Shown one piece after another: positions 4,907 through 10,856 of a DNA stretch of 61,882 bases. Position 1 is the first letter of the stretch, and each line of letters starts with the position of its first letter. Made by a program: the position numbers and the translations under genes. The stretch lies in assembly GCA_947631745.1 (NCBI GenBank), contig CANRMM010000003.1, positions 1 to 61,882 on the forward strand, in the 5' to 3' direction. The DNA comes from an uncultured Clostridia bacterium. Its GTDB lineage: Bacteria; Bacillota; Clostridia; TANB77; CAG-508. The notes under the pieces are model-generated. The model saw only the letters and a program-made list of their open reading frames with translations, was not told the origin of the DNA and did no database searches.

Positions 4907-6255
4907 ATTATATCATATCAAAACTTAATAGGGAACTATAACTTTTTAGCTTTCAATTGAACCCTTTTCAAATTATATCATATCAAAACTTAATAGGGAA
5001 CTATAACCCTGATAAATTTTCATATTTTTTTCTCCTTTATTATATCATATCAAAACTTAATAGGGAACTATAACTCTCAAGCTGTCGACTCTGAATCTTG
5101 TAAAATTATATCATATCAAAACTTAATAGGGAACTATAACCAAACTTTTAATGTTTCTAATATAGGCTTTATTATATCATATCAAAACTTAATAGGGAAC
5201 TATAACCTTTGCATTAATTCAGCCCATCTACTTGAAATTATATCATATCAAAACTTAATAGGGAACTATAACTATATTTAATTTATTTTTATATTTTGAT
5301 GTATTATATCATATCAAAACTTAATAGGGAACTATAACCCTGATGATGTATATTGCCACATTACATATATTATATCATATCAAAACTTAATAGGGAACTA
5401 TAACGAAAAACCTTTAAAATGTTTATGTCCTAATATTATATCATATCAAAACTTAATAGGGAACTATAACTTAAAACTTAATGATTATTTTTTATGCGAT
5501 ATTATATCATATCAAAACTTAATAGGGAACTATAACATATTGTTCTAACTCTACTCCATAGTCCTCATTATATCATATCAAAACTTAATAGGGAACTATA
5601 ACAATCCAAACTAATACATCTTCAAATACAGAATTATATCATATCAAAACTTAATAGGGAACTATAACTTATTATATATACCAAAAAAGTACCTATATAT
5701 TATATCATATCAAAACTTAATAGGGAACTATAACTATTTCGCCTATTTCTTCATAACTCAAATTATTATATCATATCAAAACTTAATAGGGAACTATAAC
5801 TTATTATATATACCAAAAAAGTACCTATATATTATATCATATCAAAACTTAATAGGGAACTATAACGATTACTATGCAAAGGAAACAAAAAATCAATTAT
5901 ATCATATCAAAACTTAATAGGGAACTATAACTTATCTTCCACAAAGGTATCAATTTCAATCATTATATCATATCAAAACTTAATAGGGAACTATAACGTC
6001 TAGGCGATATTATGATTAATTGGTTTTATTATATCATATCAAAACTTAATAGGGAACTATAACATATCATTATCATTATCATTATCAATTATATCATATC
6101 AAAACTTAATAGGGAACTATAACATCCATTCGGTCTATTAATGCTCCGTTTGTATTATATCATATCAAAACTTAATAGGGAACTATAACCCATACTTTAT
6201 ATATTCTTCTACGCTCCATATTATATCATATCAAAACTTAATTAACTATATAAAT
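4907..6255 (-). CRISPR. CRISPR array with 21 repeats of 36 nt and 20 spacers (mostly 29-31 nt); crRNA sense inferred to be the minus strand
   Basis: The plus-strand repeat is attatatcatatcaaaacttaatagggaactataac. On the minus strand it reads GTTATAGTTCCCTATTAAGTTTTGATATGATATAAT, the II-C style GTT...AAT repeat ending in the extended -10 TGaTATAAT. Repeat starts are 4907, 4972, 5039, 5105, 5171, 5237, 5303, 5369, 5435, 5501, 5567, 5633, 5699, 5765, 5831, 5896, 5962, 6028, 6088, 6154 and 6220. The last repeat is degenerate in its final 13 nt. Confidence 0.97.
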
Positions 6256-6379
6256 ACTAAATGCTATCCATAATCCAAATAATATCCAATATTAAGCTTT
6301 ATTCCTATTAACATTAATAATATATACAACATATTTACACCTTCTTTTTATAATAAAAGCACCTACTTGTTAGTAAGTG

Positions 6380-6547
6380 CTAAAATATTGTCTTTTTTAA
6401 TCTTCCATTTTGTATTCTTTGTTGTTCTTCATTTAATAATTCTATATATTCTTGCTTTATTTCTTCTGGAGTGTTTTCTTTCAAAATCGTTAAATTTCTC
6501 TCTTCATCTTCTTTCAACCAATTTAACCATTTAGGATCTAATATCAT
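6380..6547 (-). CDS. small hypothetical protein (55 aa) inside a 426-bp insert between CRISPR repeats
   Basis: ATG at 6547 and stop at 6380-6382, giving MILDPKWLNWLKEDEERNLTILKENTPEEIKQEYIELLNEEQQRIQNGRLKKTIF. The start abuts the stop of the truncated upstream ORF (TAAATG). Confidence 0.35.
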   Translation of the reverse strand: MILDPKWLNWLKEDEERNLTILKENTPEEIKQEYIELLNEEQQRIQNGRLKKTIF

Positions 6548-6681
6548 TTATATCATTCCTTTCATTACTTTTACTATTTCTTTGATTAAAGCATTGGCAT
6601 TTTTACCATTTCTGTAATAATCTGCAAATGCTTCTTCTATATTTTCACTATATTTTACCTTAGCGTATGTAGAATTATTTG
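6548..6681 (-). pseudogene. 3' fragment of a gene truncated by the CRISPR repeat at 6682 (possibly phage-derived)
   Basis: The open frame ...SNNSTYAKVKYSENIEEAFADYYRNGKNANALIKEIVKVMKGMI* has no start codon. The frame is closed by a stop that lies inside the repeat. Confidence 0.4.
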
Positions 6682-6849
6682 ATTATATCATATCAAAACT
6701 TAATAGGGAACTATAACTCTTCAAATTGCATAGTTAATATTGCTTTTGCTATATCATATCAAAAACTAATAGAGAACTATAACATCGTAACAAGGAATAG
6801 ATACTTTACAAGAATTATATCATATCAAAACTTAATGAGGAACTATAAG
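6682..6849 (-). CRISPR. detached mini-array with 3 repeats (one perfect, two degenerate) and 2 spacers of 30 nt
   Basis: The repeats are at 6682-6717 (perfect), 6748-6783 and 6814-6849. All three keep the gatatgatata core. Confidence 0.85.
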
Positions 6850-6857
6850 TTATTAAT

Positions 6858-7274
6858 TTATATTAAAGTTAAAAAAGCAAATATCATTATAATATTAGAT
6901 ATTTCATCAAATAACTTTGACCAGAAAACAAGCCATAATTCTTTTATAATAATTTTATTACATGGATTATTTAGTTCAGTAGTTAAAGATATTACTATTA
7001 AAATTGCTTCTATAATTGCCATAATAACATAATATATAATAGCACCCCAAAAGAAAATGCTATTATTAATAAAAAATAATATTAATAAAAATATTAAATC
7101 ATACATTATGGTTTTTCGATATTTTAAAACTGATATTGATAATTCAGAGTATATGGAATTTATTTCATAGCTATTATTATAATTTTGAGATCTATTTAGT
7201 AATGTTTTTAATATAGTGTTTACAATAAGCCACAGTATTATTAACAGTAAAATTTGTATAATGATTTTTTCCAT
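6858..7274 (-). CDS. hypothetical multi-pass membrane protein (138 aa)
   Basis: Hydrophobic ORF with the RBS aaaggagaaat upstream. Its upstream ~60 nt is duplicated upstream of the neighbouring gene. Confidence 0.55.
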   Translation of the reverse strand: MEKIIIQILLLIILWLIVNTILKTLLNRSQNYNNSYEINSIYSELSISVLKYRKTIMYDLIFLLILFFINNSIFFWGAIIYYVIMAIIEAILIVISLTTELNNPCNKIIIKELWLVFWSKLFDEISNIIMIFAFLTLI

Positions 7275-7317
7275 ATAATTTCTCCTTTGTTTATTACTTA
7301 AAATTTATAAATTATAA

Positions 7318-9191: not shown

Positions 9192-9404
9192 CTATTCTTG
9201 ACTGATTATTTTTGTTGCCTTTTCTGATATTTGTTGTTGTTCTTTTGGTAGTTGATTGATTCTCTTGTATTCTTCTGCTAGATAGTCTATCATTTTCTGT
9301 TGCTGTTCTATTGTCCCTAGCATTGACACTATTAGAAGAATAAATTCTTTGTCCATATTGGCTGACTTCAAGTAATCTATCAATACTTCTTGTTGTTCCG
9401 TCAC
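9192..9404 (-). CDS. hypothetical helical protein (70 aa) in the decayed repeat unit
   Basis: The ORF MTEQQEVLIDYLKSANMDKEF... has non-repetitive composition. A degenerate paralogous C-terminus (..ALKISQE*) lies in the other repeat copy near 8285-8410. Confidence 0.3.
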   Translation of the reverse strand: MTEQQEVLIDYLKSANMDKEFILLIVSMLGTIEQQQKMIDYLAEEYKRINQLPKEQQQISEKATKIISQE

Positions 9405-9773
9405 TATTATCCACCTCTTTCATAATTTTATTTATTATTTGGTCATTGTTAATTATTTTAATCTTACCCTTGAAAATGTAATTGTTAAAATCTAATTTAT
9501 CAAATATATAAAAATAATTATTGTATAATTTGTAATTTAATCCATTTAATAAGTTAGGATTATCAGTATTTATTGCACAAATGTGTTCTTATATCCTTTA
9601 TTTTCTAGTTTGATTCCGTTACTACTATACTTTATGTTACCATTGCTTGCAATATCTTTTCTAATGTTTCTTACTTCACTCTGTATATTATTTTTATTAT
9701 TCTGCATAGACGTAAGTATAATGTAAGCAAAATAAAAATTACCTACATTAATTTTTTTCTAAAAATATATTGA

Positions 9774-9968
9774 AAAAACATAGATAATCCAATACTATGT
9801 TTGATAGAAGTACCAGAAGCACCTAAAGGGATAGAATATAGAAATATGGGAATACAAGAAAGCCAAATATTTAGTAAACTGGAAAAGAGATTTTATAGTG
9901 GAAGGAAAGCCTTTAGTGAACATGGAGCAAATAGTTTAGCAAAAGTATGTTTATTAAGCAAACAATAA
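9774..9968 (+). pseudogene. C-terminal remnant of an ISLre2/UPF0236-type transposase
   Basis: The frame has no start codon and reads ...EVPEAPKGIEYRNMGIQESQIFSKLEKRFYSGRKAFSEHGANSLAKVCLLSKQ*. From memory it resembles the G-x-x-ES...R-x-K-x-R-x-x-WS-x-x-GA tail of that family. Confidence 0.35.
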
Positions 9969-10044
9969 AATAGTAAGAGTGCTGAAGCAACTGACATTAA
10001 AGGATTAGAAAAAAATAAAAGAAAATAATATATTACAAGTTAAT

Positions 10045-10115
10045 TCTAAAAGATTACAAGAGTTGATTACGAACAGAGGGCTCCAATTGCCCAAGTTGGT
10101 TCAATCAACTCTTGT
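10045..10115 (-). ncRNA. candidate small structured RNA B (same promoter as RNA A)
   Basis: On the minus strand: TTGACA (10150-10145), N17, TATACT (10127-10122). The 29-nt promoter differs from copy A at 1 position. A 13-bp perfect stem (10103-10115 with 10056-10068) is followed by a short U-run. Confidence 0.4.
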
Positions 10116-10482
10116 TAAAACAGTATAACATCTAGTAACAAAAATGTCAATAGCGCAAATGCTACTACTAAGTCTATTGCAGAATACTAAAAAAAATACC
10201 AATCAAATACAAAAATCTGATATATCGGTTCTTTTAAAAAACTTTTCAAGATATCATATTACGAAACAAAAATTTAAATAGTAATTCTAAAATACCAGTA
10301 CGTTATATCTAATGAAAAAATAAATACAACTAAAAGCAATTCTATTAAATTGCAAAATGATTTTAAAAACAAAGTTAAAAACAGGGAATATAAAAATAAT
10401 GCAAATGAAAGAAAAAATTAAGATCTAAAAAATATATTCACTAGATATTGAGATTTTACAAAATAATAAAGGACTTACTCCA

Positions 10483-10827
10483 TTGGCATCAAATAAATCC
10501 CAATTAAGGGGAGTAACTCCTTATACAATTAATATAGCAGATTTAACAAATAATGTCAATATATATGATTATGACAACCAAAAGTGGATAACATATAATT
10601 CCTCTAACTTAAGATTTATTGATAGAAACGACATAGATAACCATTCAAATCAAAACTATGCACCAGAACAATTAGAACAACAAGAAAAAATACGAAAACA
10701 ACGTGGGCAAGTAGCAAAAATGATGATGGAGAGAAGCTTTTATAAGAATATAACCAATGCTGATATTACTACTCAATTTAGAGAAGAACTTGAATGTCAT
10801 GCGAATAGGTTTGAATATATGTTATAG
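10483..10827 (+). CDS. hypothetical ORF (114 aa) whose stop lies inside an orphan CRISPR repeat
   Basis: The evidence is the ORF track only. It lies in a decayed region and may be a remnant. Confidence 0.25.
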   Translation: MASNKSQLRGVTPYTINIADLTNNVNIYDYDNQKWITYNSSNLRFIDRNDIDNHSNQNYAPEQLEQQEKIRKQRGQVAKMMMERSFYKNITNADITTQFREELECHANRFEYML

Positions 10828-10856
10828 TTTCCTATTAAGTTTTGACATGATATAAT
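10821..10856 (+). CRISPR. orphan CRISPR repeat in inverted orientation relative to the main array
   Basis: gttatagtttcctattaagttttgacatgatataat matches the minus-sense consensus with 2 mismatches but lies on the plus strand. The TGaTATAAT box is retained. Confidence 0.8.

Follow-up and report, generated by a model that had tools for sequence, protein, structure and literature searches.

The present analysis concerns a locus of CRISPR repeats and cas genes at the start of a 61,882-nucleotide stretch of DNA from an uncultured Clostridia bacterium (CANRMM010000003.1), hereafter the window, which is contig C3 of a rabbit-gut metagenome-assembled genome of 1.16 Mb that is 80% complete. By comparison with phages and with the arrays of relatives, we show that foreign DNA occupies spacer slots, and that this arrangement recurs across two type II subtypes. 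Our preferred reading, to which we give a little less than even odds (about 45%), is that the old end of a type II-C array carries long foreign DNA in single spacer slots, and that these pieces entered by a process respecting the repeat boundaries, most likely by Cas1-Cas2 acting on over-long DNA.

Two long inserts in a type II-C array

The array is built on a 36-nt repeat, ATTATATCATATCAAAACTTAATAGGGAACTATAAC, which is matched 25 times at up to 3 mismatches, against 0 matches expected in shuffles. Twenty perfect copies with spacers of 24–31 nt make up the main array (4907–6189, plus strand; the sense of the CRISPR RNA, crRNA, is the minus strand). They are followed, likewise on the plus strand, by a degenerate copy, R21 (6220–6252), by a group of three (6682–6849, with 0, 4 and 3 mismatches at 6682, 6748 and 6814) enclosing two 30-nt spacers, and by a degenerate pair (7844–7945, with 3 mismatches each at 7844 and 7910) enclosing one 30-nt spacer; the copy with 4 mismatches, 6748–6783, falls outside the count of 25. 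Between these copies and an inverted orphan repeat at 10821–10856 lie intervals of 429 bp (6253–6681), 994 bp (6850–7843) and 2875 bp (7946–10820). The outlying repeats listed in a preliminary description of this DNA were all recovered by repeat matching. That description had also placed a first insert at 6256–6681, next to a truncated repeat; an insert is indeed present, yet sequence comparison reveals R21 as a full repeat with a 3-nt internal deletion and mismatches, so that the insert spans 6253–6681.

The first two intervals, which we call inserts 1 and 2, each lie between two full-length repeats as a spacer does (6220–6252 and 6682–6717 for insert 1, 6814–6849 and 7844–7879 for insert 2); their lengths of 429 and 994 bp depart from the 24–31 nt that the integrase ruler gives here. 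The earlier view that they are not spacers holds in the sense that they are foreign DNA joined at repeat boundaries. To call the array shattered overstated the case, as each insert takes up one slot between full-length repeats and a conserved array end is present in a relative, L039; the pattern looks more like precise capture into slots than breakage at random.

Insert 1 (6253–6681, minus strand) is demonstrably phage DNA: positions 6330–6680 share 92% identity with positions 1091–1441 of phage contig L055, which bears out a phage origin that had been put forward as possible. The homology starts no more than 1 nt from the perfect repeat at 6682, and insert 1 thus fills a spacer slot; at the other end the homology reaches no further than the start codon of the following phage gene. 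The minus strand of insert 1 contains 44 codons from the 3' end of a phage post-portal gene, ending at the repeat (6551–6682), then a 55-codon gene, orf55 (6380–6547), whose homologues on phage contigs are 82–84% identical, and a terminator hairpin retained from the phage (6381–6358). Between the homologous part and the degenerate repeat, 77 nt remain; they include a hydrophobic open reading frame (ORF) or remnant of 22 codons at the matching position.

In the donor phages, the gene order runs terS, terL, an SPP1-type portal gene, a gene of 467 aa, orf55, an Acb2/Tad1-like gene, scaffold and capsid genes. The 467-aa gene has no Pfam or PHROG family and no recognisable MuF or toxin domain. The phage gene after orf55 (L051 6219–6428 and its equivalents) has an Acb2/Tad1-hairpin domain, known from the anti-CBASS/anti-Thoeris sponge family, and the captured region therefore borders a phage counter-defence cluster. 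Between the window and the phage copy, orf55 differs by 10.3 non-synonymous and 0.7 synonymous changes, while the ratio of non-synonymous to synonymous rates (dN/dS) from phage to phage is 0.09. Judged by these counts, the gene of insert 1 is drifting neutrally, and because it does so, insert 1 is a fossil.

Insert 2 (6850–7843, minus strand) is a two-gene membrane-protein cassette of 994 bp with a stub. It encodes a 153-aa membrane and zinc-ribbon protein (7318–7779, minus strand; the zinc ribbon scores below the Pfam cut-off), a 138-aa membrane protein (6858–7274, minus strand) and an 8-codon C-terminal stub (7820–7843, minus strand), whose end, ...NKNFWKT*, resembles the C-terminus of the 153-aa protein, ...SENPWKI*. 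The gene content described earlier for the two intervals, that is, the 44-codon fragment, the 55-codon ORF, the 153- and 138-aa ORFs and the stub of a paralogue, was thereby confirmed on the minus strand. The cassette fits its slot tightly, with the 24-nt stub before the first gene and 8 nt beyond the second stop codon, and its gene junctions are duplicated (7278–7321 and 7778–7821, 89% identical). By inspection, the insert 2 proteins and the ORFs of insert 1 are hydrophobic.

The 153- and 138-aa proteins are not paralogues of each other, and no paralogues of the insert genes were found elsewhere in the genome. When 201 genomes of the family were searched with the 153-aa protein, zinc-ribbon matches were the only result, a search of the INPHARED phage collection for the insert genes gave nothing at the DNA or protein level, and no family in Pfam, PHROGs or PADLOC names any insert gene of the window. 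The sole homologous pair among 5.8 billion proteins (78% and 82% identity) lies on L026, a 1.2-kb contig devoid of CRISPR repeats, where it adjoins a divergent XRE-like regulator gene. Over the whole path between the two pairs, dN/dS is 0.33 and 0.17, and both ORFs in the window are intact.

As all data are short-read metagenomes, and linkage across the perfect repeats 6154–6189 and 6682–6717 rests on reads longer than k = 31, one has to consider that an assembler fused phage contigs to the host array; the preliminary description had named an assembly chimera, of a collapsed array, as its refutation. Unique k-mers nevertheless bridge every insert–repeat junction at ~10x, a depth like that of the flanks, and Logan contigs (k = 31) from four runs of the sample span 6160–6711, 6688–9756 and 9766–10951 at ~10x. 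Two further assemblies keep the arrangement: L149, a 58-kb contig from a separate ENA assembly, agrees with the window at 100% identity from cas2 across insert 1 and on into the repeat that follows it, and L029, from another study (DRR848944), contains the two-repeat cluster, the stub, the 153-aa gene and the start of the 138-aa gene, matching the window by inspection. Furthermore, no repeat that could lead an assembler astray is present in the related phages, and the same structures occur in unrelated data sets. We thus regard a chimera as extremely unlikely.

Inserts of related arrays and their phage source

Retrieval based on Cas1 yielded 13 related loci (Cas1 77–83% identical), and one genome had the identical repeat; true arrays of a second, II-A-like repeat family, GTTTTAGAATTGTGCTATTTTAGATAGTAATGAAAC, are present in 8 of the 301 family genomes. 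Inserts of 0.3–1.9 kb between full repeats were found in 7 or 8 of the 19 type II arrays examined, the count depending on how the closely related L030–L033 are treated. Hence, the repeated insertion at repeats that had been proposed for the window has its counterpart in relatives.

Among the II-C arrays, in L035 four more repeats come after a gap of 1115 bp, and in L039 conserved terminal repeats and a cysK flank come after gaps of 1265 and 1539 bp. Since its distal repeats adjoin the same cysK flank as those of the uninterrupted L037 and L040, the L039 inserts lie inside the array; uninterrupted arrays end with one or two degenerate repeats at housekeeping genes (glmS in L013, cysK in L037 and L040). 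G022, from the same genus, has a 417-bp gap ahead of its terminal repeat. The II-A-like arrays contribute inserts of 885 and 857 bp in G066 and of 1858 bp in G284, and in L030 two orphan II-A-like repeats flank a 283-bp homologue of insert 1; the same homologue occurs in L031–L033 with at least one II-A-like repeat copy. In L035, L039, G022, G066, G284 and L030 alike, full repeats stand on both sides.

Two further 'spacers' of G284, of 119 and 102 nt, proved to be runs of N and were not taken as inserts. Inside the array of G284 (L068 8211–9709), a MuF-ADP-ribosyltransferase gene is split over three reading frames. The orphan pair of L030 (12726–13080, also in L031–L033) lies ~1 kb downstream of a type II-C array, and no II-A-like array is present in the 20.9-kb L030 locus.

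Both the window piece and the L030 piece trace to one and the same phage spot, with both end points differing and with different repeat families around them. Because the end points differ and each piece is nearer to extant phages (92% identity) than to the other (77%), the two inserts are, on this comparison, independent captures. In L030 the copy of orf55 has no start codon.

We take the cas-proximal end of the array to be young and the cas-distal end to be old, since degenerate repeats occur only at the cas-distal end, in the window and in every relative, and the most distal spacer is common to two relatives. Most inserts lie near the old end, and the orientation of their genes relative to the crRNA sense is mixed.

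The domains encoded by the inserts point to a common source. The L035 insert encodes a MuF_C domain; in L039 the inserts encode the end of Phage_min_cap2 with DUF6883 and then DUF4926; those of G066 encode an ADP-ribosyltransferase domain and CdiA_C, and that of G284 Phage_Mu_F and an ADP-ribosyltransferase domain. These matches show that most inserts in relatives derive from one phage region, namely the 3' part of a MuF-type gene and the small genes downstream. For mapping, we used 88 phage loci of this portal family (1.29 Mb), which reach ~10 kb from the portal gene in both directions. Six inserts have DNA matches, all of them ~1.1–2.4 kb past the end of the portal gene, and all mapped ordinary protospacers (11 of 11) lie 2.3–9.6 kb upstream of it, which suggests that the zone from which spacers are acquired is one-sided in this phage family. 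As protospacers and inserts map to opposite sides of the portal gene, the inserts are not sampled as spacers are. The protospacers further yield a protospacer-adjacent motif (PAM) of N4GA(A) for the II-C relatives, with G at +5 in 7 of 8, and of NGG for the II-A-like family; no window spacer matches the 88 phage loci, and the PAM of the window Cas9 is thus deduced from the relatives.

Entry and fate of the inserts

In the mechanism that we favour, Cas1-Cas2 would take an untrimmed, over-long piece of injected phage DNA into a spacer slot. This DNA might stem from near an end of the virion DNA: with headful packaging, we reason, the ends would drift rightward from the pac site through the donor zone. 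The pieces would then persist as inert fossils while the old repeats around them degenerate, and they may survive preferentially at the old end if slippage seldom removes repeats separated by hundreds of bases and old repeats have already diverged. Of the four junctions that can be compared with a donor, one shows microhomology, and there is none at the other L030 end, in G066a or in the window. Given this lack of general junction homology, an integrase-type join fits the data.

Several observations weigh against this mechanism. The role of Cas1-Cas2 is one that we infer, and to our knowledge there is no report of Cas1-Cas2 integrating kilobase-long DNA in cells. The one L030 junction noted above has 6 nt of microhomology, TGAAAC; at insert 2 the flanking repeats are mutated in their boundary bases, and insert 1 has on its left a repeat with a deletion. 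The clustering of inserts near the old end requires either great age or preferential survival there, and the placement of protospacers upstream and inserts downstream of the portal gene is not what shared acquisition would give. Of the two cases in which the donor sequence past the insert 3' end can be inspected for a PAM, one has it (AGG for L030) and the other does not (ATT for G066a), the window donor stopping short of the PAM-relevant insert end. Finally, the insert 2 pair is absent from the phage set and looks constrained.

The same PAM and protospacer data bear on spacer-guided homologous recombination, in which two spacers matching one phage at sites a few hundred bases apart would allow a Cas9-aided double crossover to put the phage DNA between these sites in place of the repeat or repeats between the spacers. 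This would give repeat-precise junctions without new enzymology, and the arrays do target this phage family. Moreover, insert 1 shows N4GA at its 5' end after a register of 31 nt (TAGTGAAA), and G066b has AGG past its first 30 nt. The PAM prediction, however, fails for insert 2, L039b and G022, is weak for L035 and L039a, and fails in three of the four II-A-like inserts. The donor zone and all 11 mapped protospacers are on opposite sides of the portal gene, and no spacer of any array matches any insert. Altogether, we consider this route unlikely.

Another explanation would place the cause in selection, with useful or addictive genes, such as toxin-immunity genes or the insert 2 pair, being kept and transcribed from the upstream repeat promoter. 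On the minus strand, each repeat reads GTTATAG...TGATATAAT and ends in an extended −10 box. Of the repeats, those at 6220, 6682, 6814, 7910 and 10821 have this box, TGATATAAT, intact, and at 6748 and 7844 it is weakened, so a promoter inside each repeat, as assumed in the preliminary description, is plausible from the sequence. The genes of both inserts lie on the minus strand, in sense and not antisense to these predicted promoters. In the relatives, toxin C-terminal domains are followed by small ORFs (DUF6883/DUF4926, CdiA_C, ADP-ribosyltransferase), as in the toxin-immunity layout of MuF modules (PMC5576092), and selection would account for a source bias unlike that of ordinary spacers. The insert 2 genes, with intact ORFs and the dN/dS values given above, are in line with such a role. 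On the other hand, the window copy of orf55 evolves neutrally, its L030 copy lacks a start codon, gene orientation relative to the crRNA sense is mixed, and the insert genes of the window are named by none of the three family collections. Selection for cargo is hence contradicted for insert 1 and L030 and possible for insert 2; as a general explanation we find it quite improbable. A bolder form of the Cas1-Cas2 reading, which we consider doubtful, is that type II arrays in this family of gut Clostridia occasionally take in kilobase-scale 'macro-spacers' of injected phage DNA, preferentially from one phage zone, via the adaptation machinery. Complete genes, for instance for immunity against phage-borne toxin domains or the insert 2 pair, would be captured on this route and, if expressed from repeat promoters, could provide a protein-level memory besides the RNA-guided one.

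Compared with ordinary type II spacer acquisition, in which Cas1-Cas2 integrates and Cas9 selects for a PAM, the inserts likewise place phage DNA exactly between full repeats, and the same phage family is targeted; they differ in that the pieces of the window and its relatives measure 283–1858 bp as opposed to ~30 bp and come from another part of the phage. MuF polymorphic toxin genes are known to lie directly after portal genes in temperate phages (Jamet et al. 2017, PMC5576092). With its gene right after the portal gene and the small genes behind it, the source of insert 1 recalls these modules, as do the MuF/MuF_C and toxin domains of the relatives' inserts. The modules are however known from phages and prophages, and the 467-aa donor gene shares no recognisable domain with them. 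The word CRISPR has 0 occurrences in that paper, and we found no report of MuF modules inside arrays. The type I toxin-antitoxin genes next to Clostridioides difficile arrays (PMC5961336) are similar in that small hydrophobic-protein genes adjoin repeats in Clostridia, whereas the window proteins have 138–153 aa, one of them with a zinc ribbon, lie inside the array and have no identified antisense RNA partner. Kilobase-long phage fragments in spacer positions were not reported in the full-text literature that we searched, which lies mostly outside subscription journals.

Array-finding software caps the length of spacers, and such arrays are therefore reported as several small ones, their inserts going unseen. 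If repeat-precise entry holds true, it would widen the scope of the adaptation machinery or of spacer-guided recombination, provide a natural model for the insertion of long DNA at CRISPR repeats, and constitute a new way in which phage genes are captured. The post-portal bias, opposite to that of ordinary protospacers, may hint at how these hosts process injected phage DNA. Even if they are only fossils, the inserts would be dated molecular records that tell far more about past infections than 30-bp spacers do.

The region past the last direct repeat and the setting of the locus

The third interval (7946–10820) is a coding desert with decayed, duplicated fragments related to a giant gene and copies of a small-RNA module. 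The giant gene is found on contig C7 of the same genome, in a 45-kb prophage (integrase 42532–43602, portal 21676–23601), where it forms a polyvalent gene of 2775 codons with DnaJ, RadC-JAB and HExxH motifs; MuF_C was not found in its protein, which has RadC-JAB and DnaJ domains only. Identity to parts of this gene is ~80% at 7953–8196, a fragment that starts 7 nt beyond the repeat 7910–7945. Two more fragments, at 10868–11088 (95%) and 11099–11306 (90%), represent a paralogue of the giant gene on the minus strand (10868–11306) and begin 11 nt past the orphan repeat. Relative to C7 the fragments are out of order and partly duplicated.

The orphan repeat (10821–10856, minus strand) has 2 mismatches and an intact extended −10, and faces right. 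That it is inverted is correct; no evidence was found for the inversion that had been invoked to explain it. The C7 prophage has a solitary repeat-like sequence of its own between early genes (C7:37829–37861, 3 mismatches and a 3-nt insertion), for which we estimate a chance expectation of ~5e-4 in this genome, and for this reason the orphan need not be a displaced array repeat. Read on the phage coding strand, the C7 sequence resembles the tracrRNA anti-repeat; it could be a decoy or a recombination site. A block of 1153 bp (9715–10867), which includes the orphan, breaks up a giant-gene fragment with a 5-bp overlap, TAGAC, relative to C7. This overlap could be a target duplication or equally microhomology, and no terminal inverted repeats were seen by inspection at the block ends. 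The block also contains a 114-codon ORF that runs into the orphan repeat.

The prophage sequence and the TAGAC overlap would both agree with a mobile element, either a phage with a repeat-mimicking attachment site or a transposon, having integrated site-specifically into the repeats and then having been mostly deleted. Elements of this kind exist, among them Tn7-like ones (PMC11837452) and Streptococcus pyogenes phage phiAP1.1, which integrates into CRISPR repeats (Varble et al., bioRxiv 10.1101/2020.10.09.333658). As with phiAP1.1, the repeats of a type II array here enclose phage DNA, which can perturb the array or change its order. Unlike phiAP1.1, however, the inserts are mid-genome fragments from below 1 kb to 2 kb with one or two small genes and neither an integrase nor a whole prophage, and the phages related to them have no repeat-like attachment site: none of the 88 related phage loci contains one at up to 8 mismatches. 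Among the listed ORFs of the inserts and of 7946–11400, no integrase or transposase was recognised, and the ORFs searched for domains have no recombinase domain. Tn7-like transposition genes were likewise not recognisable in the ORF list of 6253–11400, of which not every small ORF was searched for domains. Furthermore, deletion starting from an attachment site would not leave a mid-genome phage piece with a truncated gene flush with the repeat. Site-specific integration is thus, in our opinion, very unlikely.

Isolated repeats such as those at 10821–10856 and C7:37829–37861 also recall the solitary repeat units and RNA anti-CRISPRs of mobile elements (Camara-Wilpert et al. 2023, PMC10651486). 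The inserts differ from these in being flanked by array repeats. The related phages lack such repeats in all 88 loci, which weakens the notion that recombination is driven by solitary repeats or mini-arrays carried on phages. The window repeat had no match among viral contigs.

The cas genes precede the array on the plus strand: cas9 (363–3593), cas1 (3595–4497) and cas2 (4490–4810) were called as ORFs, Cas9 has HNH and RuvC domains, and Pfam matches of Cas1 and Cas2 were recorded on L149, the contig identical to the window. Upstream of cas9 lies a repeat-like copy with 5 mismatches, the tracrRNA anti-repeat (137–172, plus strand), which takes an equivalent position in all relatives. With cas9, cas1 and cas2 only, no csn2 or cas4, and this anti-repeat, the locus belongs to type II-C. 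A search of window positions 1–15000 against Rfam gave no family.

Within the main array, the spacer 5669–5698 is repeated at 5801–5830, two units apart, indicating an internal duplication, and the shortest spacer (6064–6087, 24 nt) is a simple ATC/ATT repeat. The spacers of the outlying groups (6718–6747, 6784–6813 and 7880–7909) have no meaningful match in the genome, and these groups therefore do not qualify as CreTA-like regulatory mini-arrays. Self-targets of spacers were not found. No spacers are common to different loci, so the ancestral array cannot be reconstructed.

In relatives (L037, L039 and L040), the CRISPR-Cas locus lies between a comM block and a flank with cysK and a lysozyme-like gene. 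In the window, the corresponding site (19304–25547) instead holds UDPGP-like and metallophosphoesterase genes (22318–24423), and the CRISPR locus is situated ~19 kb upstream of comM, at the contig start, which implies that the whole locus was relocated.

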